Assembly: GCA_047495785.1 (NCBI GenBank)
Contig: JBLDXI010000025.1
Location: 2,356,001-2,420,000 of the forward strand
Source: Lepidodermella squamata
Lineage: Eukaryota > Animalia > Gastrotricha
Direction: 5' to 3'
DNA length: 64,000 nt
Positions 44,547 to 63,133 of this stretch are shown piece after piece. Made by a program: the position numbers and the translations under genes. Below the pieces are notes generated by a model. The model was not told the origin of the DNA. It worked only from the letters and a program-made list of their open reading frames with translations, and ran no database searches. Every line of letters begins with the position of its first letter. The first letter of the stretch is position 1.

Positions 44547-45050
44547 TTAACGTCCAGATGAACCGAATCCGTTATCGCCACGGGTCGAATTTGCTGCTAG
44601 AGCGTTTTTCAATGGCCCCGTTACCGTTACTGCAGATTCTAAGCGACCATATTTTAAACACACCAACTGGGTAATACGGTCGCCTATTTTAATCTTGTAA
44701 GGTGTTTTGCTGTTGTTTGCAAGGCAGACTACGATTTTTCCGGTGTAGTCGGCGTCTTTAATTCATGAAAAATACAGATATTCATTAGTAATTTTCATTA
44801 TTATTTGCTTCTTACCTATTACTCCAGCGACCGTATCGATTCCATGGTTGATGCTCATTCCTGATCGACTGAATAGTTGTCCATAATATCCTCGTGGTAA
44901 ACAGATTTTAATATCAGTTTGAATCAGTCCCCTGGTTCCAGGTTGCAGTGTCGTCTCTTCTGCTGAATAGATGTCCCAACCCACAGAGCCTTTAGTATGC
45001 TTTGTCGGTTCTTTAGCTTTGTTACTTGTTAGCTCTACCTTCAGCTTCAT
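44547..45050 (-). CDS. dut: dUTPase (147 aa); exons 45050-44816, 44755-44547
   Basis: All five motifs are present after splicing a 60-bp GT-AG intron: VGWDI, RSG, GVI|DADYTG, GDRITQL, RGDNGFGSSG. Confidence 0.95.
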
Positions 45051-45484
45051 ATTTTATAATTTATATTGTTACTGAGGTTCGATTTTTATGTGAGCGGCTA
45101 CCTCCTTTCAGGCATATTGTTTTTGTAATTCAATCTTCCTTAAAAATGCATTAGGGCCTTTAGCTCTGTTGACCCCTCAGTGCTGGCTTTAATGCTTTTC
45201 ATCAAAGATTCTTGGTATTGTATACATCCTCCTTAATTGCTGTCGGTAATTCAATAAGAAAACATCATGTCAATAAATCTTATACATCCTCCCTAATTAA
45301 ACAATGCGATTTTTTACTTATCAAAATAAAAAGCAATTAGGATTTTTTACCCTTTACGGTGTAATTACCTTAAACAATTCAAACAAAACATCTCCCTGTT
45401 TTTTCCTTTTATGGAAATATCACTCAGACTATTTAAGAGAGATGCTTCAAGAATACACTTAGCATATTTCTTGAAGCAAGCTGG

Positions 45485-46249
45485 ATGCATCCTAAAGTCT
45501 ACCATTTCGGCATAGTCGGCAACATTGGGGCGTAAGTCTCATATACTCCACCGAATAGAATTCTATTTAAAGTCTCTTGTTTTAGCGGGAAATCAACCTT
45601 AATCGAGGGTCTCACTAATCTACCTTCACTCAACCGTAAACTTCAGGGATATACCGCGTGGCCAATTTGCGAGCCTGTTCATCGTTGGGAGTCCTTTACT
45701 GATGACGATAAAACTAACATTTTGAAAGATTACTATCAGATGAAAAATGCGTTCAACTTTCAAATTGTAGCCACGAGTGATATGTGCGGCCTTTATTCAG
45801 CCCCTAACCACAAACCTGAAATCTACGGGGCGCATACTATCGTTCTGCATGATCGAACGCCCTTCTGTTCTAAAAACGTCTTTATCCCATGTGCGTATGC
45901 ATCCAAGCGCATAAATTCTATCGAATATCACGCTCTCATGAATTTGTATGATAATTTCGAGCCGAATTTTGTAAAAACTGAAGCTATTATTTACTTGCGC
46001 TCCTCTCCCCAAATAGCTTGTCAAAGAGCCGTAGCTAGAGCTCGGGGTTCTGAAATGCTATTATCACTGGATTATTTACGCCTCGTACATGAGTTTCATG
46101 AAAAAATGTGTACTGTTGAGACTACAAACAAATCCCTACCATGTCCCGTGCTTGTTATCGACACTGATAATTTGAATGCCTCTGAGGTTCTAAAGCAAGC
46201 TTCTCAGTATGTTGCCTCTCTTATCACGCCTGTAATCTCTCAGACTTGA
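45485..46249 (+). CDS. Deoxynucleoside kinase (dNK/dCK/TK2 family, 236 aa); exons 45485-45531, 45586-46249
   Basis: P-loop GNIGA|GKST restored by the 54-bp intron; EPVHRW, DRT, IYLRSSP, lid RAVARARGSE, YLRLVHEFHE. Confidence 0.92.
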
Positions 46250-46259
46250 ATCCTCATTG

Positions 46260-46622
46260 ATGGATCCAACAAGACTTGTGCTCTCGAACAGCCAGATTTT
46301 AGACGCTGAATCTTTGCAATGTCCAATTTGTTTATCTATCCTACTTAATCCTATTCAAACGCGCCCCTGTGGCCATTTATTTTGTACTAAATGTGTTCTC
46401 GCTATTTTTCAAAATTCAGCTCGAACAGTATGTTGCTGTCCACTTTGCCGCGAATCATTAACAGGGAAAGATTTCGTTAAACCCCCTGTAATTTTATCGA
46501 ACATTATCTCGAATTTGATTTACAAATGCCAATATTCTGATAAAGGCTGTCCCATTACTCTAACTTATGACCTCATTTTTGGGCATGAAAAGTTATGCCA
46601 ATATAAAGAACCCATCCCTTAA
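46260..46622 (+). CDS. C3HC4 RING finger with TRAF/SIAH-type zinc finger (putative E3 ligase)
   Basis: CPIC...PCGHLFCTKC...CPLCR, followed by CQYSDKGC...HEKLCQY. Confidence 0.88.
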   Translation: MDPTRLVLSNSQILDAESLQCPICLSILLNPIQTRPCGHLFCTKCVLAIFQNSARTVCCCPLCRESLTGKDFVKPPVILSNIISNLIYKCQYSDKGCPITLTYDLIFGHEKLCQYKEPIP

Positions 46623-46664
46623 AGTTTTACATTCTTATTTCATTAGATTTAATTTTCAATAATC

Positions 46665-47186
46665 ATGGCTGAGGCGATAGTAGAATCTGCTAACCAGACA
46701 GTCAATCATCACATGTCTAGTAACTTGGTCATTCAACAGCATCCTCAGGATTCTAATCTCATCTACATAATGACTGATCGCAAAGATAAGAACGATAAGC
46801 CTAAAAAACTCGCCTTTAGACAAGACGAATTTCTTAGCCAGTTCGTTCCTTATTTTCGACCGCCGAATGATGCTTGGGTTGCTCAGGCTCAACTTGCCCT
46901 GCTATCTCACAACACAGGCTTTAAATTTTCGATGCATGAATGCAAAATTGAAGTCTGTGTCTTTGTGCCATCATTTTCACCGATTCTTATAGATATACGC
47001 AGGTTTTATCTGGATGCTAAAGGTATTTACTTCAAATTTACAGTAATAGCAATCTTTTTATGATTTAACTTTTTAGGAAATAAACAACCCTCAAGACAAG
47101 GAGTCTCTCTTGATGCAGCTCAGTTTCAAGACCTTGCAACTGGGGTGTTAACTGTTGCAGCGATGATTGAAACAGCCAATGAATAA
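46665..47186 (+). CDS. PC4/Sub1-like ssDNA-binding coactivator domain protein; exons 46665-47022, 47077-47186
   Basis: After a 54-bp intron the C-terminus reads ILIDIRRFYLDAK|GNKQPSRQGVSLDAAQFQDL, matching the PC4 signature (IDIR.YY...G...P...GISL...Q...L). Confidence 0.8.
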
Positions 47187-47303
47187 GCTAACACAAAACT
47201 TGACTAAAATGACTTACTGAATATTTATTTCAATCTATCCTTGTAATAAAGTTTTACCTCTTCCCAAATTCGATCAATTTTAAATTTTTAATCTTAGATT
47301 GTT

Positions 47304-50300
47304 ATGGATAACTATAGTTTACAATACTCATTTATTCGAAGTAATCGCCTGATTCATTCTACAAAATTCAAAATGTTTTCTGTGGAGTACTTCATTCAGC
47401 CCGTAACATCCGACTTTGCCTCAACCTACATCAACAGATATGGCCAATCTTCTAGTTCGCTTGGGCCGATGATTCAATTGTCTGGTGGCGCTGATGAACC
47501 TCGACTGGATAATATTCGATCATTTGTGCAGAACGTACCAGCCGACCAGGTGGCTAATATTGATTTGGAGACCCGCTTCAATATTCTGGCCAACTTCCTG
47601 TTCGATATTGTTGTAAATATCCATCGTGATTTACCTGTGAATTCCTTCTGCCGGCTAACACTGTACCACCCCGACTTGAAGATGCCTCTTAGCCTACCCT
47701 TCATGAAACGCGATCGGTTGCTGGAAATTTCAATTTTTGATCAACTGAGAAAAATATTACAGAGTAATGAAGAACTCTCATTTGCTGGTCGGTGGACAAT
47801 TCGTCTCTGTGTCATTGATAACCCCAATGCAGATCTAGGTCAAATTGTTGGTGGTTCTCGGGCAGAGCGGGCTATAAACGAAACTTTGGACAAATTTTTT
47901 CTTCGCTCCAAATCGATCGTTAGAATCGGAGCGCGCAAGAATGAAACGAACAATCTTTGCATGGGCAGAGCTCTCATCACTGGAGTGGCTTTGGCTCACA
48001 TGAAGGCGAATCCTACGGATCCATCTCTTCAAGCAACCTTCAAATCGATACGTAGTACGCGAACCAATCGTCAATTTCGCGAAGCCACGGCGCTATATCA
48101 GAAAGCGGGCTTACCTCTCAACCTTCCAGCCTACAATCTAGATGATCATTACTCAGCCCTGTGTTCGGCTATCGATCCTGAACATAATACTTACAGATTC
48201 GTAGTATACTCGTACGAATCACAGGATGTTATTAGGGAAATCCCAGAATTTGATCATCGCGTAAGCCTTGGGTTGCTTCCTGTTGTTCTACTGGTTTATC
48301 GCAACGACGTCTCTCAGCCCAACAGTCATCATTTTCATGTCATTGCGAATCTCAACTTTATGAAGGCCACTCTTAGCAATGCACAACGAATATGCCCCAC
48401 TTGCTTTCAGACGAAAACGAGTACGGCTGTGCACAGATGCAAGTTGGCATGCTCTTCCTGCCGTAATTTTTACATGAAAAACCTGAATTTCACTTCTTTT
48501 ATCATTAATATTATTTTAGGTGTATCAGGGAGCATTTGCCGTGTGATTTCCAACACAGACCAACAAAACTACACGCGGTGTCCGCAATGTCGTGCAGGTC
48601 TGATGTTTTTAACCTTTTCATTATTATTCAGCTCTTTTTATGTTTTTAGTTTTGTATAGCGAACGTTGTAAGCAAAACCACAAATGTGCTAAAAAGAATC
48701 CATGCTTTAAATGCGGGAGGAAATTTGTACATTTTCTCAAGCATGAGGCTATGTGTCCCGGGCGGCGCTGTCACATTTGTCAGGAGCCTTTGAAAGCCAG
48801 CGACGAAGAAAATGGCACACACTTCTGCTTCATGACTCCCTTGGTATACTCATTTTTTTCAGTCCAGCTTTTTTCAAAATACTGTGGTTGGTGTATTTTT
48901 AGCCCTTGAAACCGGCGAATAAACTGGAACGTTATCGTAACCTAGTTTTTTGGGACACTGAGACATTTTCGCCATCACTTGCTGATAACAACAATGAGTT
49001 CCAAGTATGCCTTATCGTTGCAAAGGTCGTATGCATACCTCACTGCATCGAAGCGAGGATTCAGCGATGCCATTCTAGTTGTGGACTTCATATTTTTTAT
49101 GGAAGTCGTCCTCTGGAGGATTTCGTAAACTGGGTGCTTCTACCTATGAATTACCAGTCGATTTATTTGGCTCACAACTCAGCCAATTTCGATTCCTTAT
49201 TATTACTGAAAGAAATTCAAACACGATGTTCTAAAGTGAAGATTCTTCAAAGGCAGGGATCTCTACTATGCATTGATTTCAAACAACAAAAAATCAGATT
49301 TTTGGATTCATATCTCTTTTTTCAATGCAGATTAAGGTAGGTTACCTAAGAAACACTAAGAAACTACATTGCTTACAGGTATTTGTTCAACAACAGGGAT
49401 TTACCAGCAACAATGGGAATCCCAGACAAGAAAACCTTCTTTCCTTACGTCTTATGCACTAAAGAAAAGTAAGTACATCATCAACTTCTTGAGCTATTGT
49501 GATTGAATTCGCTGTAATCCTTCGAGTTTCAATCTCGAATTCCCACAGCTGCCTAATATGATCTACTATGAGCCTGACAAAATGTCTCCTTCTGAAAGAG
49601 CAGAATTTCTAACTTTCTACAACGAAAACAAACTGAAACGGTTCAGTGTTCGCCACACGTTACTGCAATACTGCATACAGGATTGTCTAGTTTTGGAAAA
49701 GGCGTCAATCAAATTTCGGGCGCTAATGCTGGAGTTGTGTTCTACTGATGCCTTTAAAGAATGCATCACACTAGCTTCTCTCACAAGCACATGCTTCCGC
49801 AAGCTGTTTCTTACGAAGGATACATTACCTGTCATCCCGACCGCTGGCTACTGTGGCAAGGATTCACACAGCAGGCTCTCGATAGCTTTTCTTCAATTTC
49901 TGATGGAGTCTGACCCTGAAACTTATGGTTCAATGAAACACGCTCAGAACTCACGTCAAGAAGTTCGAATATCTATACCTGGCCACCGTTATCCTTATCG
50001 CGTCGACGGTTTTGTTGCACGTCGTGATAAAATTCCGAGTGAACCCGATCTGATTGTCGAGGTTCATGGTTGTGCTGTCCATGGCTGCTTGCAATGCTTT
50101 GAGGCCTCACAACTAAATTTTCTATCTGGACAACCAAACGGCGTAGTTTACAAGCAAACCTTGGAACGTGAAGAGTTGTTTCGCTCGAATGGTTACATTC
50201 TTCAAAGCTTTTGGGAGCATGAAATTAGAGCTAGTTTCAAACAACACCCGAGAGCACAGGAGATTTATGATAATCTCACAATAGCTAATGTAATGGAGAG

Positions 50301-52159
50301 CCGTTCGTTTTTCTTTGGAGGTAACTGGAGGTTTTCCCTATTTAATCTTCGCGGGATTAAAACATCATGCCTACTTTTTAGGGCGGGTCGAAGCTTTTCG
50401 TTTAATGGCTATGATTGCCGAATCACACTCAACTTCAGGCGACCAAAATTTGGAAAAGATTGCTCAAATTTGTAAGGAAAGCGGGATGCAAACCAAGGAC
50501 TTCTTATTTCCATCGCCCGATTATTCTATAATTTCCGCCGACTTCAACTCGTTATATCCAAGCTGTATGATGGATGGCTACTATGCAATAGGACCACCTA
50601 AAGTATCCACCTTGGATCTCAGATTAAACAACGAGAAACTGCAGGAGATTTATTCAAAGGAATCTTTTTTTGGTGTCGTACAAGCACGCGTAAGCTCTTC
50701 GCATCTACATATCGTCTCCCTGCTTTCATCATCACCACATTATTTTGCTAGGTATTAGCGCCGAAAAACATCTGGCTACCTGTACTCTGCTTTCGTAGTA
50801 AACAAAACAAGCTCGTGTTCTCATGTTGCTATGCTTGTTCGTCGACTGCAAATCCAAACTTGTGCGTTTCAAGCCGTGAATGCACCCATTCTGATTATGA
50901 AAGGTCCTGGATTGGTTCGTATTGCTCTGTGGAACTGAAGTACGCTACAGATGTTCATGGCTACAGATTGCTGGAAGTCTACGAGGTTAATAATTTTGTT
51001 TAGCCAACTCATGCATGGCTTCTATCAAGTTATTTTTTTTAGATATGGGAGTTCAAGAAGAGCAATACAATTTTCAGAGATTTCATTAAAAGATTCACCA
51101 TTTTGAAGGCCGAATCCTCCGGCTGGCCGCCAAACTGTGCTACTAGTGAACAAAAAGCACAGTATTTGGAGCAATGGGAACGCATTGGTATAACGATTGA
51201 TAGCACCAAGTTGGATAAAAAGAACCCTGGGTTACGCGCGATCGCCAAATTAGTTTTGAACAGCTTTTTTGGTCGATTTGCTATGAATTCTAATCTAGAG
51301 AGAACAGATTATATCAAATCCCCGTTTCTGCTTCAGCAAATGCTAAATAATCCAGCTTTGGAAATTGTGGATATTCAACCACTAGGCTTACTCATCAACT
51401 CTGATGATGTCTCTCGCTTGCGAATTGTAACACGGCCAACCAAAGATGCCGACGTTCCAAATGGATCCACCTCAGTTATAACAGCGGCCTTCGTAACAGC
51501 TAATGCTCGTGTGAAACTGGCTCGTGAGCTGTACCGAGTCGGCCCAAAAAGTGCTATCTACAGCGGTTAGAGAATAGCGCCGCTTATGCTACCAACATCT
51601 CTACGTTTTTTGTCTTTTGTTTTAGACACGGATTCAATTTTTTGCCTTCAAGGGCCTGGAATTACTAAAATTGAGTTCACACCCGTTCTTGGCGGCTTGG
51701 CGGATCAGCTTGATACAGGGCAACGCATCATTGCAATGGTTGTACTGGGCTGTAAGGCATATGCCCTACTTTTTGCTGACGGCAAAGCCAAGCTAATGTT
51801 AAAGGTAATTGCTACTTGTTGTTACGCCCTCTGTTTTTTATTATTTACGTCACGCGCAGGGAATACGTCAAAGTTTTCATTCACGCAGTCTTCTCGATTT
51901 TTTCTTGTTCATCAAGCATGTAATACAAAGTCTCCACGATAACGAAACCAGCGGAAGCGGGGGCCGGGGTGATAACAACAAAAACAGCGTCATCGCTGAA
52001 TTGGATCAGACTCAGTTTAAAAAAGTGCATACTCCGTTATCGGAAATTCATTGTGTTCATATAACAAAAAAGATTCGTTTAACCTATGATAAACGTTGGC
52101 TACGCCCCGGCGATGCTTCCTTTCTAACTTATCCACATGGATATAGCGCTGATCAATGA
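47304..52159 (+). CDS. polB: Protein-primed family B DNA polymerase (about 1424 aa, 11 exons) with N-terminal extension, Zn-binding motifs and a Vsr-like insertion
   Basis: ExoI WDTET, ExoII HNSANFD, FLDSY, ExoIII YCIQD, FFG|GRVEAF, DFNSLYPS, KLVLNSFFGRF, YS|DTDS, KAY. Introns 48463-48519, 48598-48649, 48844-48902, 49337-49396, 49469-49526, 50321-50381, 50690-50751, 50986-51042, 51566-51625 and 51805-51859 give a 4275-nt open frame. Confidence 0.93.
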
Positions 52160-52166
52160 TCGATTA

Positions 52167-53321
52167 TTACATGAATAAACTCCAAAACCCTGTGCCAGCT
52201 TGAAACTTGTTGATTTTATTTATCTTACGCTGTGACGTTCTTCGGAAAAGTTTTCCAGGTGGTGATATTTGTGTTTGATCAGTCATAGAACGTGGCTTTC
52301 TACCGCGCTTTTGACCCTTCCGTGGCGTTGCCGCTGCAGTTGCTGCTCCAGCTAGCTCAATTTCCATCGGTTCAGCGGCAGCGGCTTCTTCTTGTCTTTC
52401 TGCTTGATTATCATCATTATCAGCACCATCTTGCAGCTCTTCACTATTGCTGCCGCTGCTGTCCTCATCGCCGCTAAACGAAGACGACCCTGCTGTTGTG
52501 TTGCTGTCTCGAGGGGCCTGGGGGGTGCGCGCGCGGGGGGTCCCTCCTCTCGTAGGCAGCTGCTCATCATTAGGCCGATCAACAACAACATCATCGTGGC
52601 TGAGGACGGTCGTGGCTGCAGCGCTAGAAGTCGATGATGTTTGCGGGGCAGCGAATAGAAAATCCATTTGAAGATCATCAAATTCATAATTGCTGCTATT
52701 ATCAGTTGAAGGTCGTGGCGTTGTATTAGGTGAAAACTGCTGCTGAAAGCCGCCAATACCCGAATCTCTGTTATAGTTGTTATAGCTAGGCCCGGCCGCT
52801 TGACCAAAATTACTAGATGTTAATTTAGTAGGTTGTTGGCGCGCAAGTTGTTGTTGCTGCTGTTTTTTTGGAGGAGGAGGAGGAGGAGGAGAAGAAGCAG
52901 AAGGAAGCGGCGGCGGCGGCAGCGGAGGAGGAGGAGGAGGAGGAGGAGGAGGAGGAGGAGGAGGAGAGCGCGGCCTCGATTCTGCTCGATCTGCTGGTGC
53001 AGGCGACATTGGAATAGCGGCTGGCGGCTGGCTACTGCCTTGTAAAACTACCAGCTTCTTCAAATTCATAATCTCATGCATGAGTTCGTTACGTTTTCGC
53101 ACTAAATCGGCTGAATTATCACTACTACTAGCGTTGTTTATCACATCCCGGTCTAAAGACTGTAATAGCTGCACTAGTTTGAAAAGCAGAGGATTGCTCA
53201 GCAATGTTTTAGCAGCAATCAAGTCGCTCGCGTTTGGTTGTTGTTGTTGTTGTTGTGCTGGAGTTGGCCCAGGTGTCGCAAGTGGAACAATAGTCATGCG
53301 CTGTGCATAGTTTCGCTGCAT
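52167..53321 (-). CDS. Pro/Gln-rich low-complexity Maverick protein (384 aa), function unknown
   Basis: Long ORF within the structural gene block: N-terminal RMTIVP plus a helical segment, poly-Pro, an acidic stretch, a basic tail, and terminal GTGFWSLFM. Confidence 0.7.
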   Translation of the reverse strand: MQRNYAQRMTIVPLATPGPTPAQQQQQQPNASDLIAAKTLLSNPLLFKLVQLLQSLDRDVINNASSSDNSADLVRKRNELMHEIMNLKKLVVLQGSSQPPAAIPMSPAPADRAESRPRSPPPPPPPPPPPPPPLPPPPLPSASSPPPPPPPKKQQQQQLARQQPTKLTSSNFGQAAGPSYNNYNRDSGIGGFQQQFSPNTTPRPSTDNSSNYEFDDLQMDFLFAAPQTSSTSSAAATTVLSHDDVVVDRPNDEQLPTRGGTPRARTPQAPRDSNTTAGSSSFSGDEDSSGSNSEELQDGADNDDNQAERQEEAAAAEPMEIELAGAATAAATPRKGQKRGRKPRSMTDQTQISPPGKLFRRTSQRKINKINKFQAGTGFWSLFM

Positions 53322-53324
53322 AGT

Positions 53325-53738
53325 TTAGATTCGAAGAAGCCTCTTGAGTTCTGAATAATCAAACTTTAGCCTGGGTGCAAAGGATTTCAATACAGTGGGT
53401 AAAACTGCAAAAAAGGAAGCTTTCGAAGCCTTATTTCGCCTATTGTTCTTGTTGCTATTAAGGCAGTGTCGAATAAAAACTTGCCGGTTGTGCTCGACCA
53501 AATTGACACCTTTTTGTTTCAATTTAGCCAAATCAGGGGCCAGAACAGTACTAGTGCTGCGAAGCCAATACAAGGCGCAACGGCTAAGAAATCGTATAAG
53601 GCTAACAGAGCTAGTTGCTAAAATATCAGCACGCTGACCGGGGTGAGCATGCAATAACCATTTCAATGCAAGAAAAAGCCGCCGTTTTTTATCAAGACTG
53701 AACGATGGTGACGTTGCTGAGGTAATAACTTTATTCAT
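53325..53738 (-). CDS. Small basic Maverick protein (137 aa), possible core protein
   Basis: ATG-initiated ORF packed between the ATPase and the Pro-rich gene. QRADIL...LIRFLSRCAL, a basic cluster and an amphipathic FFAVLPTVLKSF segment. Confidence 0.65.
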   Translation of the reverse strand: MNKVITSATSPSFSLDKKRRLFLALKWLLHAHPGQRADILATSSVSLIRFLSRCALYWLRSTSTVLAPDLAKLKQKGVNLVEHNRQVFIRHCLNSNKNNRRNKASKASFFAVLPTVLKSFAPRLKFDYSELKRLLRI

Positions 53739-53789: not shown

Positions 53790-54633
53790 TCATTTCTTTG
53801 AGACTAAAATGTAAGCGTAACCAGGTTTACTACCGAAGCCATTGCTCGAACGAATGCGGAGATTATCCGGAGTAGTTGCACAATTATCCAGTAGCAGTGG
53901 CGTGTGAGATGATTCAGCAGTTGCTTGGTTCAACGCTTCAAGAAGGCCTCGCCAGCCCATTGGGGAACGCCGTTGTGCATATGATCTAAAGCTTGCAGAG
54001 TCGGAAATGCAGCGAAAATAGAATAAATAGTTTGCATTTTGCTATAGAATAGAAAATACATAGAAGAAAAAACAATAATTTTCTGAGGCAAACCAGAATT
54101 TCCCTGCTATTTTTTGCTCGAGTAAACAAAACTTGTTGAAGGAGAATGGTTGTCGTATTCAAGTGCCGCCCTCCTAAAAAAAGCTGTACCAGTGTTTCGT
54201 CTTCAGTTAATAGGCGATACACGTCATCAAATACTAGGCAACAGCGGGGCTGCGTCTCGTTATTGTCGTTGATATAATTTTTTAAGCTGAAGCTATCGCT
54301 ACTGCTGTTTTTTGTGTCTGCTAAATTTACGAATTCAACTTTAATTTTGTGAACTTGCAATGCAGCATCGGCTATGTCATTGTAAATGGGTTGGAAAGTA
54401 GAATAAAAATAGACAATTCTCTCAAAAGGAAGTTCAAAACTGAATGCATCCTGTAGGATTTGAAGCACCAGACTTGTTTTACCGCTCCCCGACCTGAAGA
54501 TGAGTAAATTACACTAAAATATATTGACTTTTATTTCCATCGTCACTTACGGCCCAACAATGAGAATTGTGCTAGGGTGAACAAAAGGCAAAGCTTCATT
54601 TATGTTGCCAGGGCAGCAGCGCAAATCACTCAT
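53790..54633 (-). CDS. A32-like (FtsK/HerA) DNA-packaging ATPase (244 aa); exons 54633-54551, 54493-54094, 54041-53790
   Basis: Walker A GP|SGSGKT restored by a 57-bp intron; Walker B LVFDD; GRH...LLQQ; REIL|QNANY restored by a 52-bp intron. Confidence 0.92.
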
Positions 54634-54636
54634 CCT

Positions 54637-55200
54637 TTATAATCTAACGTTACAGGGTTTTATTCTTTCAAGTGGTCTCATAGATAGACCATAGTGGGAA
54701 TATAATGTATTAAATTTATGATAAAGTACACAGTCTTTTATAAGCAAATTGTTCTTTGATCCAAGCTGATCAAAATGCCTCAAAATTTGGTGCATGTCTT
54801 TACCTCGCGCTCGAAGCATGCTGTAATATAGAGCCCATAAGCCGCAGATTTGTGAAAAAACATGCTGGTAAGACCTATTGCAATGAATGTACGGCACTTC
54901 TGTTTGGCTATTCGCTTTCAAAAAGTTGTCGATATAGAGGTTATGATAGGAAGGGGAAAGGTTAAGGCTATCGAAAAACTCACAGGGCTCATCAGGATGC
55001 TGTGCGCTGTGAACAAACAGTGTGACCCAGTGCTTTCCTGTAGAATTGTATACATTTCCTGTGTTACAGATAATCAATTGTGGATTATTTTTCACAATAG
55101 GAAGCTGCTGTGGTAGCTGATCAGCGGCTACAACAAAAATGTCAAACTTTTTTAGTACTGGATCAATCCGGATGAAATCTTCCAATTCATTGTTGTACAT
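54637..55200 (-). CDS. Adenain-type (C5) cysteine maturation protease
   Basis: ICNT...GKHWV...EFFDS...YQ....QICGLW, giving His, Asp, Gln and Cys. First ATG at 55200. Confidence 0.92.
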   Translation of the reverse strand: MYNNELEDFIRIDPVLKKFDIFVVAADQLPQQLPIVKNNPQLIICNTGNVYNSTGKHWVTLFVHSAQHPDEPCEFFDSLNLSPSYHNLYIDNFLKANSQTEVPYIHCNRSYQHVFSQICGLWALYYSMLRARGKDMHQILRHFDQLGSKNNLLIKDCVLYHKFNTLYSHYGLSMRPLERIKPCNVRL

Positions 55201-55210
55201 GAAAAACTGC

Positions 55211-56701
55211 TTAAGAATCAACAATTACGTCACGCGTTCGTGTGATCTTAAAAAATTTGAATTTTAAGGCAATTTTAATTTTATGAAAAAAGATGATACC
55301 TCAAAAACTGAATCAGTTTCAGTTAATACTAACAGCTGAGTAACAATTGTTGTTTGAACAGCAAAACTCAACTCTACTCTGCAGGTACCTGTGCGTATAA
55401 CTGAGTAATTTTGCAACGAGGAGTTGCGCGATAAATCGAAACCAAAAATTGTGAAGCCATTAATAAACTGATCCATAGTTAACGTAGATGCCTTGAAAGG
55501 GTTATCTGGGTTGATAGCATTGAGAAGCTCCAAATAGACTCTGGTGACATCTCCATTTGCAAAATCCATTTCCAAGGGAGCTGTTGAGTGATGTAGTTCA
55601 TTGCCCAAATAAATCGATATTCGGGATAGCTGGCTGTGTAATGCATTCAATGGATTTTTACCCGCCGTTCCATTCAGGGCGGAATCTTCAAAAAAACAGA
55701 AAAACATACGCCTTGGAAGCTTACCATTAATACATTGTGGTATCTGTTAAACCATTAGAGTTTTAAAAATTGACTTAGAAACGCGCGATGAGCAAACTTA
55801 CACTGTAACTCAAAACACTACTTGGTATGTGAAAAAGCCTTGTTCGAACTCTCATTATAGGATATTTGGCGTTAGTTTTTTCCAGCGCACGCGTATGAGC
55901 AATCACTATGTCCGGCGACACAACAACAGCCCGGGCAATAATTTTTGCAGATTCAATGACGATTGAGTGAGGATCAGCTGTGCTCGGCCCAACCAAAGCA
56001 AAATTGTTAGATGCCCTATAGAGCTTGATGCGGACTTCAACATTAGGTAGAAGTAGCCTATTACACAGCATAGGATCTGCAAACAGGCGTCCCAGGGTGC
56101 ACACAGATTTCCCGCCCTGAACAATTTCCAACCGTTTTTTAAATCCCTCGTTTGAATTGTCAAAATTATCCAGTTTTTTAGCTGTATCAGGATACCAAAA
56201 TTGTGTCTGTAATATCGTGTTTTTTGCATCAGTATTATGAGACAAAAGCGTTGAAATATAGGCCCGATAAGCGTATAATGAATTTTGTTCACTTAAAAGT
56301 TGCCCATTTAGTGAAATCTCGCATGTTTTGAACATTGTGTGGTGGGCTAAACAAAGCGGGGCTTTTTGTAAATTTGTAGCCGAAAGACTAGCCTTATACT
56401 CGTTGTATGCATCGTCAGCTTCGCCAGCATTTTTCTTCCGAGCTTCAGAAGGGGTTCTAACTACTTTCCACTTGAGCATCAGTTGCATGCGTGACAGACA
56501 CAAATAATCATTGTACGGGCCGATTTGAAACTCAATCAGGTTCGGTGAACTATTAAGAGGGGCAATTGGGTAAACATCTATACTTATTTGGTTTTCTTCA
56601 GCAAGCTGTGAAGGCGGTACAGTAAATAAATCTAAATCTGAAGATAATACTATTGAAGAGGCTGAGGCTGGGTGAACAAAATTATCTCCAAAGCCTTCCA
56701 T
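55211..56701 (-). CDS. Double jelly-roll major capsid protein (459 aa); exons 56701-55802, 55743-55300, 55246-55211
   Basis: SDLDLFTVPPSQ, IEFQI, YAYRAYISTLL, RLLLPNVEVRIKL, AKYPIMR, GKLPRRMFF, KNPLN, GFTIFGFDLS, FE|ITRTRDV. Two GT-AG introns (58 and 53 bp). Confidence 0.92.
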
Positions 56702-56734
56702 TACAAATTTGAAGAATCAAACGCAGCAATGGGC

Positions 56735-57277
56735 TCAAGACGCTTCAAATAGCACTGATTTAGTTGTTGCGCGTCTTTTCCTTTTATAAGCCTTTCTTTT
56801 TGTAGTAGAAGCACGGCGCCTACGTTTTGCAGTCACACTACTAGTTTTACTAGGGCCACGACGACGGCGCCTTTTACGGCCACCTCCACCGCCTTGATGT
56901 TGCTTCAAAGCCGTTTCAGCAATATCCTTAGCCATGTTTAAGGCGCCTGAAGTGCCATGACGCTTAAGGGATTCGGTAAAACTAGGTCTAGCGCCCTCAG
57001 GTTGTTGCATATCACCTAATATTTTTTGGCCAGTAGATAATGCTTGTTGAAAAATAGACGGAGCAATTACTGGGAAGAAATTTCTGAAAAAGGCACCTAA
57101 TATATTTCCTATTCCCTGACCCCTATAATGATATGGAAATTGAATTGTTGCCCCACGGAAATGGTCCAGGTTAGCACCCGCTCCAGCTCCATAGCCTGCT
57201 ATCAGCGGGGAGGAGTGTTGGCGGAGAAAAAACTGCTGGTACTTGTCAACGTTTTGGTTAGAATAAGCTAGGGGCAT
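56735..57277 (-). CDS. Maverick core or membrane-active protein (GxG cleavage motif, amphipathic helix, Arg-rich tail)
   Basis: FRG...YRGQGIGNILGAFFRNFFPV and QGGGGGRKRRRRR. Located between penton and MCP. Confidence 0.8.
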   Translation of the reverse strand: MPLAYSNQNVDKYQQFFLRQHSSPLIAGYGAGAGANLDHFRGATIQFPYHYRGQGIGNILGAFFRNFFPVIAPSIFQQALSTGQKILGDMQQPEGARPSFTESLKRHGTSGALNMAKDIAETALKQHQGGGGGRKRRRRRGPSKTSSVTAKRRRRASTTKRKAYKRKRRATTKSVLFEAS

Positions 57278-57315
57278 CTTCGGTAATATTAATAATTAGA
57301 ACTCAGCCACTTATA

Positions 57316-58536
57316 TTAATATAAGGCTCCGGTTTTTCGGCGAATATGAAGTAGCAATACAACTTTGCTACCATCCACAAAATCGATCAATGCCCCGTTA
57401 TCGCGGCGGATTTGAACTTGAATTGAATCTATAAAATTGGCTTTTAAAGGTAAATATAGGCCCGAGTTATAAATCACTGTAAAATGTGATGACAAGTCTG
57501 AATTTGCCGTAGCAGAAGCCATCGTAGAATAGGTTATCATTCGAAGGAGGCTAGCTTGGCAATCTCCAACAAAAACATCCGCTGCAACTGAGCAGTAAAT
57601 GAACAGTGAGTTATTGCCATAATTCAACTGAATGTTGTATTGAGCTGTAGCACTTTCTTCATAGCATGCATAAATAAAGGCAGGCGGTAAATCATTATCT
57701 TTGGTGATTACTGTTTGCTCAGAAAAATCAAAGTGCTGTGCTGAATTTACGCCTTCTTGATTTTCTACCGCCGCTGTCTCATTATTTGCATCCTCCTTAA
57801 GTTTTGGTCTGCTAGAAAGCCTAACAATCCCAACTGAGTTGAATAAAATGTGTGGATTTTCACGAATTTGGTGGCTCATATTCCACGCATATGCCAAGGC
57901 ATACGTTGACTTTATATCAAAAGTGGAAACTTCATTAAATTCTGGCTCGTCATTTTTTGGGGCCTTGGGAAAAATGAAAACTCCAGACGGTGTATTCTGT
58001 TCTATTGGAGACACAAAACCTAAGAGGCCAGCAGAATCTGAAGGTATAAACATAGAATATGGCCATTTACAGGTAATTTTAGTTTTTTTGTTGACTGAAT
58101 CATAATGAGCAAAAATAGAGCCATTACTACTTGAGATGGATATTTTTTCATTAAAGTGATCGATTAGTTTGGTTATATTCGCAAAATATTCACCTCCGAA
58201 ATTTACTTTGTTAATAAAGCCAGTTTCCCATGGATTGTTGAAACTTTTCATCCGATGTGGCAAAGAGCCAGGATTTGTTAAATAATTAGCAATAATGTCG
58301 TTTTTAAAAGATTTCAGCCAGTTACAATCAAGCACATAGACTGTATGACGATCAATGCTACTCCACCTAACAGGAATTGTAGCCTCAAGTAGGGCTACTT
58401 CATAAGCACGGCAATCGGGTACGCAAATTGGGACAGGGAGAGCAACTTGATAATCCGACGGAGTATTCGCCGGATGTTGAGAATATGAGGCATTCGAGGG
58501 TAAATAAATAAAGAAGTCCTCCTGGATGCTAAGCAT
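57316..58536 (-). CDS. Minor capsid (penton) protein, 406 aa
   Basis: N-terminal FFIYLPSNAS...NTPSDYQVALP...YEVALLE; C-terminal LFIYCSV...VGD...LLR...YLPL...I.VQIR...G..IDF...LHIRR. Confidence 0.88.
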   Translation of the reverse strand: MLSIQEDFFIYLPSNASYSQHPANTPSDYQVALPVPICVPDCRAYEVALLEATIPVRWSSIDRHTVYVLDCNWLKSFKNDIIANYLTNPGSLPHRMKSFNNPWETGFINKVNFGGEYFANITKLIDHFNEKISISSSNGSIFAHYDSVNKKTKITCKWPYSMFIPSDSAGLLGFVSPIEQNTPSGVFIFPKAPKNDEPEFNEVSTFDIKSTYALAYAWNMSHQIRENPHILFNSVGIVRLSSRPKLKEDANNETAAVENQEGVNSAQHFDFSEQTVITKDNDLPPAFIYACYEESATAQYNIQLNYGNNSLFIYCSVAADVFVGDCQASLLRMITYSTMASATANSDLSSHFTVIYNSGLYLPLKANFIDSIQVQIRRDNGALIDFVDGSKVVLLLHIRRKTGALY

Positions 58537-58732
58537 TTGTTATGTTATCCTTATCTATCTTTTCTAAAGTAAGGATTGCGCTGTTGCCAAAAGGGGGGAG
58601 CTTAGTTTTGAATAAATAGTTTGAAATTTCTATAAGCCAAACGGTTATTAGAAGGAAAAAAATGTAGGCCCCTACACGCACAGATGGCTTTTGTAGGAAA
58701 GCTAAGAGTGGAGTCGTAGGAACTCTATTCAT
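58529..58732 (-). CDS. Small predicted single-pass membrane protein (67 aa)
   Basis: Start overlaps the integrase stop (ATGA) and the end overlaps the penton start. Hydrophobic segment VGAYIFFLLITVWLI. Confidence 0.55.
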   Translation of the reverse strand: MNRVPTTPLLAFLQKPSVRVGAYIFFLLITVWLIEISNYLFKTKLPPFGNSAILTLEKIDKDNITNA

Positions 58733-59940
58733 GAGGCCAAGGTTTTGATCTCGTTTGCATCAATCCAACTAGCGGCTTCAATCGGCCAGTTTTGCCATTT
58801 CACAAGAGCCTGTTTCTTGCCATTTATAGTGCGATGCTTCAGAACTTTTTCTATTAAATATGTTTCTTGCGGATGTGCTATCTGAAGCTGCCAATCGTAA
58901 AAACTACCTTGAATACGCTTATTCAGAGTATCACGGAGATAATACTTGTCGGGGATGGTACAAGTATCTATGCGGTCGATAAAAAAATATTCTTCAGTAA
59001 AAATGAAATCTCCTTCTTTGTGAAATAAATCCTTTACACGACTAATTCTAACACAATCACCGACAGAAAAAGTCGGTTTGTATAGTAAATTCTTGCGCTT
59101 TTCAAGCATCAATTGATCTCTTTTTCCAAAAACATTATTGTAAGCAACCAAATTTATAGGATCTTCTGGGGAAGCTAGCCATAATTCTAACGGGGCAACC
59201 CTAGTGCTGCGATTTTTCATTTGATTGTAAGACGCTAAGAAAAAAGGTAAGTAATCGATGTAACGCAGCGTATGATTTGCAATTTGATGCCTCGAAATAG
59301 TTCTACGAAGCCAACGGTTGAAAATTTCTATGGGTGAACACTTGAACATGGAGGTTGTAGTGTAATAATAAACATTGAATTTTTTAAATATTTTTTTAGC
59401 TTCTTTGTTGATAAATTCTCCGCCAGAATCTGTAGTGAAAGAGCGGCAACGCAAATCAGGTGTTAGGCTGCTCAAAAAATTACTGATCTTCTCAGCAGTG
59501 TAATTTCCTTCTTTGTTAAGTAAGGGAATACAGAAAGCATAACGCGTAAAACAGTCTTTGATTGTAAGTAAATAGCGGGTTCCATCATTATCTTGGCTTG
59601 AATCTTGAACTTCAAGAAGATCACCTAGAAAGAGGTCACTTCTAGCATAAACTTCATATTGCATGAATTGCTTCCGGTTTCTTACACTTAGTGGTTTATA
59701 TAATGAATATGTTCGATCATGGCTCATAATCTCAGCTAGTTTTTTATGAGTAAGGGAATTTCTCAGCTCTAAGGGTAATGTAGCTTTAAGTGTTGAGTAT
59801 AATCTGCGCAGGCCTTGAAATGATCCAACATGTTTCGGATCATTATAGAAGCTCAAAACAAACGATTTCAAGTCTGACCTGTGGTTTATTTTAGCATCTC
59901 CTTCAGCTAGACGTCTCGCATTGTGTTTATTACGTGGCAT
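58729..59940 (-). CDS. Retroviral-like (RVE) DDE integrase with C-terminal chromodomain
   Basis: GDLL, TDSGGEF and IEIFNRWLR form the triad; FSVGDCVRIS...F.K, GSFYDWQLQ; chromodomain YLIEKVLKHR...LVKWQNW...SWI. Confidence 0.95.
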   Translation of the reverse strand: MPRNKHNARRLAEGDAKINHRSDLKSFVLSFYNDPKHVGSFQGLRRLYSTLKATLPLELRNSLTHKKLAEIMSHDRTYSLYKPLSVRNRKQFMQYEVYARSDLFLGDLLEVQDSSQDNDGTRYLLTIKDCFTRYAFCIPLLNKEGNYTAEKISNFLSSLTPDLRCRSFTTDSGGEFINKEAKKIFKKFNVYYYTTTSMFKCSPIEIFNRWLRRTISRHQIANHTLRYIDYLPFFLASYNQMKNRSTRVAPLELWLASPEDPINLVAYNNVFGKRDQLMLEKRKNLLYKPTFSVGDCVRISRVKDLFHKEGDFIFTEEYFFIDRIDTCTIPDKYYLRDTLNKRIQGSFYDWQLQIAHPQETYLIEKVLKHRTINGKKQALVKWQNWPIEAASWIDANEIKTLAS

Positions 59941-59943
59941 GAC

Positions 59944-60213
59944 CTAATTCTTCTTTATAGCTAATTTACGGCAAGTAGGGACAACCGAACAATTAGCCAT
60001 GTGGCTAAATAAATCACCGTTTAAGTGGAATAATAAATCATTTATATTATATAACATCCGCTCAGTAGACTCGACAAGTTGCCGCAGGTGAAGGAGTTCG
60101 GCTTGAGTATTGCGAACTTCCATAACAGCGAAAAAGCTGATTAAAATGGTAACCAGGGATAGCAGCAATAGGATCGGTAAAACAGCACGCGGAATATCTG
60201 TTGTTTGATGCAT
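59944..60213 (-). CDS. Small membrane-anchored coiled-coil protein (89 aa)
   Basis: N-terminal hydrophobic helix (VLPILLLLSLVTILISFFAVM), a heptad-like segment and a C-terminal Cys pair. Stop lies 3 nt before the integrase ATG. Confidence 0.6.
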   Translation of the reverse strand: MHQTTDIPRAVLPILLLLSLVTILISFFAVMEVRNTQAELLHLRQLVESTERMLYNINDLLFHLNGDLFSHMANCSVVPTCRKLAIKKN

Positions 60214-60377
60214 AATAAATTACGAAGACTTTAAAAACGGGGAAATTTACCGATAGCCATATTTTTATTTCTGCTGCGAATTTTGAAAATTGATAGATAA
60301 TGATGAAAGTAGAAATAATGATTTTAGCTTAAAAAAAGACGGCACGCGATTAATCTTCCCTCATTCATTAAATCATT

Positions 60378-60977
60378 TTATTGTTGTTTGATATACAGAA
60401 AAAAAGGCGCCAATTTAACAAATGCTATTTTTATAAGAGATAACGAAAAACAGCCGCTCATAATCATTTTTCCAGTGTGAAACAGTGTGGCAGATACATT
60501 TAACTTTGGTTCATTTTCATTAGTGCTGACTTTGGAGAAAACACGTATACGCAACCCAGGAAAAAATTCTGGTTGGTAAACGCATATTTTAGGAAATTGA
60601 AAAGCTAGCAGGCTAAGATTGACAGTTTTATGTAAATCGTAGAACAATACTATATTAGTAATTATTGGGTCACGGATTATCAACCGTCGATTAACAATTT
60701 TTCTGAGTGTAGCTTGAAGAACTCCAAAAGCAGTAACACAATTCGAGGCTGTTTTGGTACCACTACAAATTATAGCTCCGGATGAAAATAATAAAAACGT
60801 CGCGTTAAAAGCAGGTACTTTATAGAACAAAGCACTCGACATTTTTTTTGGGTTATATTTTGCACAAGGTAAAATTAGGGCTAGACTATCTAAATTAAAT
60901 AGAAAATTTGACCTTGATTTAGCCATAATATTTGAAATAGAGTAATCAATATCATATTGTATATTATTTACTTCCAT
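60378..60977 (-). CDS. TATA-box-binding-protein homologue (core 199 aa from ATG 60977; frame open to 61157, true start uncertain)
   Basis: Two TBP repeats: ISNIMA...NLDSLA...KYNPKKM...FLLFSSGAIICSGTKT and ITNIV...VNLSLLA...YQPEFFPGL...TLFHTGKMIMSG. Confidence 0.9.
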   Translation of the reverse strand: MEVNNIQYDIDYSISNIMAKSRSNFLFNLDSLALILPCAKYNPKKMSSALFYKVPAFNATFLLFSSGAIICSGTKTASNCVTAFGVLQATLRKIVNRRLIIRDPIITNIVLFYDLHKTVNLSLLAFQFPKICVYQPEFFPGLRIRVFSKVSTNENEPKLNVSATLFHTGKMIMSGCFSLSLIKIAFVKLAPFFLYIKQQ

Positions 60978-61060
60978 ATTTAATGGTGGGGATTTCAATA
61001 GAAAAAAAGGTTCAGTGCTAGATTGTAGCTTTAAATCAACAGGATAGGATATAGTCAAAT

Positions 61061-61489
61061 TTATGATCGTGGTCGACTGTGATGCGGCTGATTGAAGGCT
61101 TGTAACATACTTGATTTCAGCTGTTTCTGTTTGAACTTTGCGATAGGTTGAGGGCAAATCATGACCAAAAAAGAGGCGACAGAATCTTGCTTTCGTGACT
61201 CATGATTGGTAATTGGAACAGCTGGTTTATTTTTCGCCTTGCATGGCGTTTTCGCCGATTTAGCAACTGATTTCTTCTCAGTACCTATGACTTTTTTCTG
61301 AATTTTATGTTTAGCATTGCGTTTCGGTTGATTACGAACCGCAGTTTTTGCTAATCTAGAGGCTGATGTTTGTTCAACAGGTTCCTTGGTAAACGTACTC
61401 GTATTCGGTTCATTCAGGTTTATTGGTACGAAATCATTGTTAGAAAAAAACAATGGAGAAGCCGGAGATGAATTGAAGAAAGCTTCCAT
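61061..61489 (-). CDS. Basic low-complexity ORF; either a separate gene or the 5' exon of the TBP homologue
   Basis: ATG at 61489 (MEAFFNSSP...), Lys-rich, overlapping the TBP frame. A weak candidate phase-0 intron 61165-61110 (56 bp) would fuse the two. Confidence 0.45.
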   Translation of the reverse strand: MEAFFNSSPASPLFFSNNDFVPINLNEPNTSTFTKEPVEQTSASRLAKTAVRNQPKRNAKHKIQKKVIGTEKKSVAKSAKTPCKAKNKPAVPITNHESRKQDSVASFLVMICPQPIAKFKQKQLKSSMLQAFNQPHHSRPRS

Positions 61490-61657
61490 AAATTCAGTAA
61501 GAAGAATAATATTCAAAGTTCTTGCGTTTGAAATGAAAAATGATCGAATGACGGAAGCCGGCCGCGGTGATTGGTTGGAGTTGCTGAGCCCCAGAACCTT
61601 CTGATTAGGAATGAATAAATAACAAAGGCATTATATAAATAAAATAAACTGACCAAA

Positions 61658-62464
61658 TTAGGTCGAAGAGCTGTTGTTGAAAGGTAAGACGGTAGCGACA
61701 GGTTGTAGTGCGATGGAGCGTTGCATGATGCCCGGCCATTTACTATTCGCACCTTCCTGCTGACCATTAAGAACATCGATGACTGATGCCCATGGAATTT
61801 TCTGAGCGTGTTGATAGGGTGGAGGTACGACGTTCTGCATTTCTACTGAGACCCTACGACCTGCCCGAAGTAAAAGGTAGAATATGTGCCGCAGGTTTAC
61901 GCTGACACCATTAAAGTTTTTTAACAAATCGTAAAATAAATGTTGGATGTAGATATATCGGCCTTCGGTGTAGGTAGGGTGTGCCGTTAGGCCATACCAG
62001 AAACTTTCTTCCAGGCCAGACACAATAATAGGGTTAGGGCTATCGTCGAGGCAATCATCCAAAAGGTAATCACTTTCAGTAAAAATAATTGAGTGACAAA
62101 TGGACGACCATAAATCATCCTGGCGAACAAGGAGCGTGGTAGTATCATTTAGGATGCTCTTCCATAAATCATGCCCAACGATGGAAGCACAGGTAGCTAA
62201 ATTATATTCGGCAAAATGTTGAAAATTCGTGCCATCGTGGGTTGATGGGAAGAGACGAGCAACGGCTCTTTTGTAGCCGAGATAAACATGATCGATAGTA
62301 ATATGTTGGCCTTTCGAGTTGGCAATCAAATCGAATATGGCGACTTCAGCGAATGTAATGCGTCCAGAGAGGGTATTTAGTGATATATTTAATGATTTCG
62401 GAGGAAAAAGTAAATCTTCTCGGTAGAAAATCGCTTCATAAGATTCATCATAGCCAATAATCAT
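61658..62464 (-). CDS. Hypothetical protein (268 aa)
   Basis: Long ATG-initiated ORF of globular composition inside the TIRs. No motif recognised. Confidence 0.65.
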   Translation of the reverse strand: MIIGYDESYEAIFYREDLLFPPKSLNISLNTLSGRITFAEVAIFDLIANSKGQHITIDHVYLGYKRAVARLFPSTHDGTNFQHFAEYNLATCASIVGHDLWKSILNDTTTLLVRQDDLWSSICHSIIFTESDYLLDDCLDDSPNPIIVSGLEESFWYGLTAHPTYTEGRYIYIQHLFYDLLKNFNGVSVNLRHIFYLLLRAGRRVSVEMQNVVPPPYQHAQKIPWASVIDVLNGQQEGANSKWPGIMQRSIALQPVATVLPFNNSSST

Positions 62465-62544
62465 AGCAACTTATTTGACCTTGCTATCCCTACCTTAATC
62501 TTTGCTTTTATTCGATTTTCCTTGAGTAAAAAAATGTTTCTTAT

Positions 62545-62790
62545 ATTTTTTAGATTACAGTTAAGTTGGATTGATAGGAGAAAGTAAAGTTTATTTACAA
62601 AACAAGTTAATGGACATATCAGGAAAGAAAGGAGTATTTATAAATGCTAATGGCCAAAGTAAAAAATATTTATTATATTTTAGATTAAAGTTAAGGGGGA
62701 TTGATAGGAGAAAGTAATGTTTATTTACAAAAAAGGTTAATGGAAAGTAAGGTGTATTTATATAAGCTAATGGACAAAGCAGGAAAAAAG
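62545..62790. repeat. 130-bp imperfect tandem duplication in a divergent intergenic region
   Basis: GGATTGATAGGAGAAAGTAA.GTTTATTTACAAAA...GTTAATGGA...GTATTTATA...GCTAATGG.CAAAG occurs twice (TTGATAGGAG at 62571 and 62701). Confidence 0.8.
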
Positions 62791-62857
62791 ATGAGCTAGC
62801 TTGAGTTCTTAGATTACTGTATCTAATCAAGTATCTTTTTGGAAACTAAGAAAATTG

Positions 62858-63133
62858 ATGGAAGCAGAAGACATGTAAGTTTGGTTCTTTTTTAAAAAAT
62901 CTTGAATAAATTCTGTTATGTTTAGTCGTGAACGCTTATATCAAGCACTGCTAAGCATTGACCATCTGCAACGAGCAATGACAGCAGCTATAAACGAAAT
63001 GTTGAACACACAATTGGAGGTTGAACAATTGATCAATGATGCATCACGATTTATGATAGCAACTCGAGCAAGAGATCAGGCATGCAGCCTAGATTGTGGT
63101 GATTGGAATTGTAATTACTGTTACAAAGATTGA
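62858..63133 (+). CDS. Small helical protein with Cys-rich tail (74 aa); exons 62858-62874, 62926-63133
   Basis: ATG GAA GCA GAA GAC AT|GTAAGT...TTTAG|T CGT gives MEAEDIRERLYQ...CSLDCGDWNCNYCYKD. AATAAA follows the stop. Confidence 0.65.

Follow-up and report, generated by a model that had tools for sequence, protein, structure and literature searches.

A Polinton of Lepidodermella squamata with host-like spliced introns in its polymerase and accessory genes

Is an animal Polinton whose core genes fall into short open reading frames (ORFs) a decayed copy, or are its genes restored by the splicing machinery of the host? The question is raised by a Polinton/Maverick-type element at positions 44094–63499 (19.4 kb end to end) of a 64,000-nt stretch of Lepidodermella squamata DNA (contig JBLDXI010000025.1, positions 2,356,001–2,420,000; hereinafter the window, to which all coordinates refer). 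The element carries 20 GT-AG introns of 51–62 nt, of which 14 lie in the genes for the protein-primed DNA polymerase B (pPolB), the major capsid protein (MCP), and the packaging ATPase. We show that pPolB and the accessory genes are transcribed and spliced; the capsid and packaging genes likely carry introns too, as judged from their alignment with homologs. The explanation that we prefer, and hold to be probable though far from certain, is a gradual, one-by-one gain of introns in a long-resident, DNA-replicating Polinton that has come to rely on the splicing machinery of its host.

Splicing of the polymerase and accessory genes

Contigs from four public sequencing runs (X1–X4) were aligned to positions 44000–63600. 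Two of these runs, X2 and X3, which belong to separate studies, were taken as RNA from their poly(T) ends and spliced joints, and X1 is DNA-like. Of 35 RNA joints 15 were listed, and all our statements on joints rest on those 15. Each of them occurs in X2 and seven recur in X3, with none in X1 (263 contigs) or X4 (four contigs). The skipped segments are the ten pPolB introns, one each in the dUTPase, deoxynucleoside kinase (dNK), and PC4-like genes, and two more at 60198–60250 and 61601–61653; the two MCP introns, the two ATPase introns, and that of the terminal small gene have no joint among the 15 of 35 listed. All 15 skips are GT..AG on the strand of their own gene, and both strands of the element are represented. 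The introns are given below with their phase and support, 'profile' denoting the spliced profile alignment described further on:

44756..44815, strand -, dUTPase intron: 60 nt, phase 1; in-frame stop if kept; X2 joint
45532..45585, strand +, dNK intron: 54 nt, phase 2, within Walker A; joint in X2 and X3
47023..47076, strand +, PC4-like intron: 54 nt, phase 1; joint in X2 and X3
48463..48519, strand +, pPolB intron 1: 57 nt, phase 1; X2 joint; in-frame and stop-free, yet spliced
48598..48649, strand +, pPolB intron 2: 52 nt, phase 1; X2 joint and profile
48844..48902, strand +, pPolB intron 3: 59 nt, phase 0; X2 joint and profile; flanked by a 6-nt exonic direct repeat
49337..49396, strand +, pPolB intron 4: 60 nt, phase 2; X2 joint and profile
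49469..49526, strand +, pPolB intron 5: 58 nt, phase 2; X2 joint and profile
50321..50381, strand +, pPolB intron 6: 61 nt, phase 1; X2 joint and profile; within the conserved glycine motif that precedes polymerase motif A
50690..50751, strand +, pPolB intron 7: 62 nt, phase 0; X2 joint and profile
50986..51042, strand +, pPolB intron 8: 57 nt, phase 0; X2 and X3 joint, profile
51566..51625, strand +, pPolB intron 9: 60 nt, phase 1; in catalytic motif C; X2 and X3 joint, profile
51805..51859, strand +, pPolB intron 10: 55 nt, phase 0; X2 and X3 joint, profile
54494..54550, strand -, ATPase intron 1: 57 nt, phase 2, in Walker A; blind profile; in-frame stop if kept
54042..54093, strand -, ATPase intron 2: 52 nt, phase 0; blind profile; frameshift if kept
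55744..55801, strand -, MCP intron 1: 58 nt, phase 0; profile
55247..55299, strand -, MCP intron 2: 53 nt, phase 0; profile
60198..60250, strand -, intron of a small hydrophobic gene: 53 nt; joint in X2 and X3
61601..61653, strand -, intron: 53 nt; joint in X2 and X3

The twentieth, a 51-nt candidate at 62875–62925 in the terminal small gene, is unproven; an in-frame ATG within it, at 62918, means that it is not strictly required. An initial annotation, made from the letters of the window, had proposed about 18 GT-AG introns. All 18 segments, of 51–62 nt, are present in the genes that it named, and 13 of them (ten in pPolB and one each in the dUTPase, dNK, and PC4-like genes) are skipped in X2, five of the 13 also in X3; the count, however, fell short by the two at 60198–60250 and 61601–61653, which had been overlooked. 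The latter lies downstream of the ORF at 61658–62470, 4 nt past its stop, and belongs either to the 3′ untranslated region of that gene or to the coding part of an overlapping ORF.

The splicing of pPolB is best illustrated by one X2 contig (record 11), 4731 nt long, that covers 47403–52714 (5312 nt); the ten introns, 581 nt in all, make up exactly the gap, a contig of this kind not being proof of one single transcript. Without its introns pPolB consists of 11 stop-free exons totaling 4275 nt and 1424 codons. Splice signals alone prove nothing, because the element contains 1398 GT..AG pairs of 51–62 nt; the RNA joints and the profile do, and a loose branch-like motif is found in only nine of the 20 introns. 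With U2-type introns defined as GT-AG segments present in DNA and missing from RNA, 15 of the 20 are skipped in X2 and none in X1.

The second line of evidence comes from a profile of 40 pPolB homologs, constructed without sight of the window or the RNA and used for spliced alignment to the window. It recovered the ten pPolB introns at coordinates identical to the RNA joints, and profile alignment also recovered both MCP and both ATPase introns; thus, the comparison with intronless homologs that the initial annotation had suggested as a check returned the introns of all three genes. No intron was called by it in the integrase, the putative protease, or the PZ-like ORF. These results, together with the location of the TBP-like ORF in a single gap-free X2 piece, agree with the earlier impression that the integrase, protease, penton, and TBP genes are intronless, the one penton call (354 nt, in frame within a stop-free ORF) being read as an insertion. 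The RING-finger ORF (46236..46622) likewise lies in a gap-free X2 piece, whereas the integrase segment 59042–59695 has no X2 cover and is uninformative on expression. We rejected a further pPolB call at 47403–47531, which is in frame and read through by an X2 contig. Among relatives, calls in five of 13 pPolB loci (78–633 nt, all multiples of 3 and within single stop-free ORFs), four of 59 penton loci, and two of 60 PZ-like loci were also read as insertions.

As annotated earlier, introns sit at YS|DTDS, FFG|GR, GP|SGSGKT, GNIGA|GKST, and GVI|DADY. Of the 17 core and cargo introns, 16 would bring in a stop or shift the frame if retained, the two MCP and two ATPase introns among them, which bears out the proposed dependence on host splicing. 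The claim that every intron but the one at 48463–48519 is needed for frame or motif thus holds for those 16 and not strictly for the terminal candidate; the exempted intron is indeed in frame and stop-free, as had been noted, but it is spliced nonetheless. The same features might be taken to indicate an expression gate, in which regulated retention by tissue or stage would turn off the polymerase, capsid, and ATPase: several introns split catalytic motifs, and two genes with tiny first exons have an alternative ATG inside their intron. The third intron of the P-element is an example of such regulated retention. We consider a gate of this kind improbable here, as one regulated intron would suffice and twenty are not needed, and stops in retained AT-rich introns are expected anyway (GC content 30% versus 43–44% in exons). 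Moreover, the ten pPolB introns are all missing from one X2 contig, and the second study has the same joints, with the proviso that contigs cannot show regulated retention.

The least favorable reading of the locus is that these segments are not introns at all, the element being a decayed copy and the skipped forms being products of misassembly or of a DNA copy free of introns. It could appeal to the provenance of the data, in that X2 was guessed to be RNA, the kind of X3 is unrecorded, and contigs are not single transcripts, as well as to the missing target-site duplication of the element. We find it scarcely credible: all 15 listed skips obey GT..AG on the strand of the gene and fall on both strands of the element, X2 has loose poly(T) ends at 44282 and 61404, the joints come from two studies with 0 of 15 in X1, and every modeled gene is free of stops and frameshifts after splicing.

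The X2 contigs also revealed some features of the transcripts themselves. The poly(A) site of the dUTPase transcript, at 44282, falls in the subrepeats of the terminal inverted repeat (TIR). One contig runs from 61414 through the TBP-like ORF into the spliced small gene at 59944–60260, and another extends from dNK through RING into the beginning of the PC4-like gene (45676–46750); these are possibly polycistronic or overlapping transcripts.

Origin of the introns

We next consider how the introns arose. Polintons copy themselves from DNA to DNA. In the explanation that we prefer, the element would be transcribed by the host nucleus, and new introns would arise singly at AG| proto-splice sites, to be trimmed afterward to the size window of the host (~55 nt). 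Because copying is from DNA to DNA (pPolB and integrase) with no reverse-transcription step, each intron would be passed to every daughter copy. An intron in a catalytic motif could be lost only by exact excision and could not be absorbed as extra residues; since nothing less than exact excision would be tolerated there, introns would accumulate in such motifs in a ratchet-like manner. The outcome would be an obligatory reliance on the spliceosome of the host, and splicing would probably be constitutive and not serve as a switch.

The distribution of introns among relatives is consistent with gain. Among genomic relatives, no intron is called at any of 81 MCP, 20 ATPase, or 40 integrase loci, the relative loci being the best 80 of 221 MCP matches by tblastn. 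Of the 81 MCP loci, 49 are full-length ORFs and the rest are mostly cut by contig ends or decayed. Of the 13 genomic pPolB loci, nine have the gene in one single ORF of 1175–1868 aa; of the others, L004–L006 have only a 375-aa fragment (the same one in each, at 9173–10297, within three viral contigs of 339–733 kb) and L010 is cut by a contig end. As these relatives are intronless, the introns appear gained rather than inherited, as the initial annotation had proposed. The homologs run through most of the junctions: at pPolB junctions 4–10, 33–40 of 39–40 homologs are continuous within two residues, and at junctions 1 and 2 the figures are 33/40 and 37/40. The continuity at junctions 4–10 argues for insertions as opposed to intronized coding sequence, and we conclude from these comparisons that the 20 introns are likely gains.

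Their positions are biased. An exonic AG precedes the donor in eight of the 20 introns against a background of 5% (p=3 × 10–6). The pPolB introns fall in conserved windows (0.51 vs 0.35, p=0.003; p=0.013–0.024 for restricted ranges), and the bias holds with the null limited to AG sites (p=0.001–0.008). The earlier impression that introns split catalytic motifs thus finds a counterpart in the conserved neighborhoods of pPolB (p=0.001–0.02).

In size the element introns resemble those of the host, as had been claimed: they measure 51–62 nt (median 57, n=20) against 48–66 nt (median 53.5, n=20; Mann-Whitney p=0.17), the host set comprising 18 introns in three nuclear-receptor paralogs, which are not independent, and two in neprilysin, all from alignment and not RNA. 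Donor profiles are GTAAGT-like in both, whereas the acceptors differ, with a preference for TAG in the element (11/20) and CAG in the host (14/20). The narrow size range would also fit an old family of introner transposons inserted after integration, for which dinoflagellate eupolintoviral elements offer a precedent (PMC12166617), and pPolB intron 3 has the identical six exonic bases on either side (48838–48908 with the flanks). This is the sole case among the 20 that resembles a target-site duplication. However, the all-against-all comparison suggested in the initial annotation spoke against an introner origin: intron pairs are no more alike than shuffled ones (best score 21 versus a shuffled best averaging 23.9, with 94% of shuffles reaching 21). 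No copies of the introns occur elsewhere in the 64-kb window, and their junction repeats are no longer than those of host introns (mean 1.6 vs 1.35 nt). Hence, within the window we find no mutually similar families with a TIR or target-site duplication signature, such as define introners, and regard this origin as quite improbable.

The main rival to our explanation, and one compatible with gradual gain rather than exclusive of it, is camouflage, whereby introns would have been selected for making nuclear transcripts host-like, so that early genes elude the mechanisms that detect intronless DNA, with efficient export as a further benefit. The element is transcribed, and 13 introns cluster in its replication arm (dUTPase, dNK, PC4-like, and pPolB), with none in the protease, PZ-like, penton, or integrase genes; moreover, intron insertion counters HUSH repression in human cells (PMC8770142). 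Nevertheless, the argument is one of pure analogy, with HUSH and with the punuivirus described below. Long uninterrupted coding stretches also occur in the host (a single-ORF gene of 1339 aa and an exon of 498 aa), MCP and ATPase also bear introns, and the RING and TBP genes are intronless even though covered by contigs of the spliced run. We therefore view camouflage as rather unlikely.

Several observations weigh against gradual gain as we envisage it. First, apart from the guessed RNA nature of X2 and the unrecorded kind of X3, the tblastn ranking favors intronless relatives, and some of the 40 protein homologs may derive from transcripts. Second, the relatives found include no intermediate, which leaves parsimony as the basis for gradual gain; the closest relatives are only 25–38% identical, and the pPolB tree places the element on a long, weakly placed branch. 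Third, junction 3 lies in a variable linker where only 12 of 40 homologs are continuous within two residues, and the conservation test comprises ten sites and a quick alignment. Fourth, 10 of the 19 coding introns are in pPolB and none in the protease, PZ-like, penton, and integrase genes (post hoc p=0.007–0.02), an uneven spread that hints at selection instead of pure drift. Finally, the mean pairwise score of the introns is slightly higher than that of shuffles (13.26 vs 12.88, SD 0.22), and old introner insertions would likewise have lost their similarity.

Anatomy of the element and its surroundings

The element is bounded by TIR arms of 140 nt each, which are 96% complementary and contain 63-nt subrepeats. 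Both the TIR length and the total size fall within the ranges for Polintons (TIRs of 100–1500 bp and totals of 13–25 kb; PMC10748475). Its features are as follows:

44094..44233, no strand, left TIR: core of 140 nt, subrepeats to ~44300; 96% complementary to the right arm
44547..45050, strand -, dUTPase, two exons: Pfam PF00692 on both exons; frame
45485..46249, strand +, dNK, two exons: Pfam PF01712; start and frame
46236..46622, strand +, RING-finger ORF, no intron seen: Pfam zf-C3HC4; gap-free X2 piece
46665..47186, strand +, PC4-like gene, two exons: open frame; no Pfam family; tentative label, from the initial annotation
47304..52159, strand +, pPolB, 11 exons, 1424 codons: PF03175 on four ORF pieces; RNA-like contigs; profile
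52167..53324, strand -, proline-rich ORF, 385 aa: no Pfam family
53325..53738, strand -, basic ORF, 137 aa: no Pfam family
53790..54633, strand -, A32-like packaging ATPase, three exons, 244 codons: Pfam Pox_A32; profile alignment
54637..55203, strand -, putative maturation protease, single ORF: named for its position and its His/Cys motifs
55211..56701, strand -, double jelly-roll (DJR) MCP, three exons, 459 codons: exon-1 structure model; profile
56735..57295, strand -, basic ORF that we take to be PZ-like, no intron called: spliced profile alignment
57316..58536, strand -, minor capsid protein (penton), single ORF with a long insertion: Atlas 0.97; profile
58729..59943, strand -, retroviral-type integrase with chromodomain, single ORF: Pfam rve and Chromo
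59944..60260, strand -, small hydrophobic gene with a three-codon first exon (start inferred)
60378..61199, strand -, TBP-like ORF, intronless: Pfam TBP; single gap-free X2 piece
61658..62470, strand -, 270-aa ORF: no convincing family (Pfam; Atlas gave nothing usable)
62858..63133, strand +, terminal small gene with the candidate intron 62875–62925
63360..63499, no strand, right TIR: subrepeats from ~63298

The identification of pPolB rests on 1990 relatives at E≤0.001 in HMMER searches, and the window pPolB is collinear with 40 full-length homologs; a word-index search with one pPolB exon, unlike HMMER, gave no match. Its exon 6 includes a stretch (49950–50110) presumably resembling a Vsr-type nuclease insertion. 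Insertions of this type have been described for some pPolB2 (PMC10748475). The MCP had no match in Pfam, nor in PDB by sequence; however, a structure model of its exon 1 (pLDDT 76.7) matched the capsid folds of iridovirus, poxvirus D13, and PBCV-1 (E=10–6 to 4 × 10–5), an earlier model having been weak (pLDDT 52.8). The putative protease, similarly unmatched in Pfam and in PDB by sequence, aligns with syntenic ORFs of relatives and has the His and Cys motifs. The Atlas match of the penton (0.97) is to one cluster carrying Sputnik V18–19 on 26% of its members, and the penton has an insertion of ~118 residues (57628–57981) relative to its relatives. For the integrase, the Chromo domain was matched and the rve match lies below the curated cut-off; it is 32% identical to the integrase of relative locus L001, with the columns of the acidic triad kept.

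No 5–8 nt target-site duplication was found for any left end at 44085–44099 paired with any right end at 63494–63507, and this copy may not be a direct insertion by the integrase; recombination between copies or a mixed assembly could be the cause. Contigs of X1 and X2 exit the window at 44093–44094 into other flanks, which points to further copies of the element. The left flank itself (44000–44093) is repeat-like in X1, with several loose ends and a depth of 940–2300. Over the element X1 has a depth of ~1500–2600 with very few variants (rare variant contigs are at ~50), which could stem from numerous near-identical copies, from an extrachromosomal form, or from biased amplification. We dropped a reading of this depth as a copy number of 30–50, given that the left flank is equally deep and library amplification could mimic it. 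X2 bears an organism label different from that of X1 and X3, yet 141 of its 148 aligned contigs are at least 99% alike; one species may go under both labels, or else different species share the element in nearly unaltered form. X4, with a third label and from the same study as X1, lacks the element.

The flanking host genes encode Kunitz, PAN, trypsin, LIM/KY-type, neprilysin, and tandem nuclear receptor proteins and mark the host as an animal; its neprilysin has no match above 32% identity. A tandem array of divergent nuclear hormone receptor genes occupies 34500–43700, with partial copies at 43005–43660; the three aligned copies have six conserved short introns each. The LIM/KY-type gene (22596–26615) is a single 1339-aa ORF amid intron-rich surroundings.

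Comparison with known systems

The element works in the manner of a Polinton and has the gene set of one, the departures being the intron-bearing core genes and the lack of a target-site duplication. The view of the initial annotation that Maverick core genes are generally single-exon is shared by the papers cited here. In intact vertebrate elements no introns were seen, 'introns' of <100 bp in alignments were treated as possible insertions, and intronless core ORFs are part of the definition of 'intact' (PMC8097293). A nematode Maverick has intronless core genes and cargo genes with introns (10.1101/2022.07.12.499685), and EMALE genes have none (PMC8547959). Our literature searches, with supplements, Repbase, and subscription papers outside their scope, found no spliceosomal introns in animal Polinton core genes.

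As had been anticipated, ORF-based surveys are liable to drop such elements. Their stated assumption is that introns are absent, and they accordingly work with prokaryotic gene callers or with cut-offs on ORF length (PMC10120064, PMC10748475, PMC8097293): for instance, a prokaryotic caller was chosen because endogenous viruses lack introns (PMC10120064), and length cut-offs exclude fragmented ORFs (PMC10748475). Such intron-blind surveys would score this element as degraded, and counts of intact elements may consequently be too low. One might go further and propose that intron-rich, host-spliced Polintons are an overlooked active class across animals, their introns building up by preference within catalytic motifs and serving as a host licence that marks them as self. 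This we regard as doubtful. If true, the class would be hidden because surveys demand intact ORFs, and polymerase, capsid, and packaging motor would work only where the spliceosome handles introns of ~55 nt, host range being traded for stealth. In any event, the element offers a system for studying the origin of spliceosomal introns, with an intronless ancestral state, 20 gains in 19 kb, and comparable sister families, in which the bias to AG| sites and conserved motifs is directly testable.

The element shares with animal Polintons (PMC8097293; PMC10748475; 10.1101/2022.07.12.499685; PMC8502044) its size of 19.4 kb, TIRs, pPolB, rve integrase with chromodomain, A32-like ATPase, DJR capsid, penton, and putative protease. 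The gene order of its structural arm resembles that of relative locus L001, and TBP was previously noted in adinto-like elements (PMC8502044). Unlike those Polintons, the element has 20 spliceosomal introns, 14 of these in pPolB, MCP, and ATPase, and no target-site duplication at this copy. Introns are also present in genes of polinton-like viruses (PMC12220804), but those are self-splicing group I introns, not spliceosomal; in R. lacustris they are 309–376 nt long and interrupt a small gene that lies upstream of the MCP.

The nearest precedents are the dinoflagellate introners and punuivirus. The former are intron-like inserts in full-length polinton-like elements (PMC12166617) that form multi-copy transposon families, with ~25% in coding regions; the intactness of the elements is unclear, and the word 'spliced' is absent from the main text. 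In contrast, the introns described here are mutually unrelated, reside in core genes, are spliced, and occur in an animal. Punuivirus and giant endogenous viral elements (10.64898/2026.10.09.758095; PMC11244446) are comparable as integrated DNA viruses with host-like GT-AG introns overlooked at first annotation. In punuivirus, an algal giant nucleocytovirus, 61 of 506 genes have introns (mean 2.5), with enrichment in genes active before virion production (10.64898/2026.10.09.758095; PMC11244446), whereas here about half of ~18 genes bear introns and pPolB alone has ten. What the present case adds is an element complete from TIR to TIR, in which all modeled genes are open after splicing and the splicing is seen in two studies.

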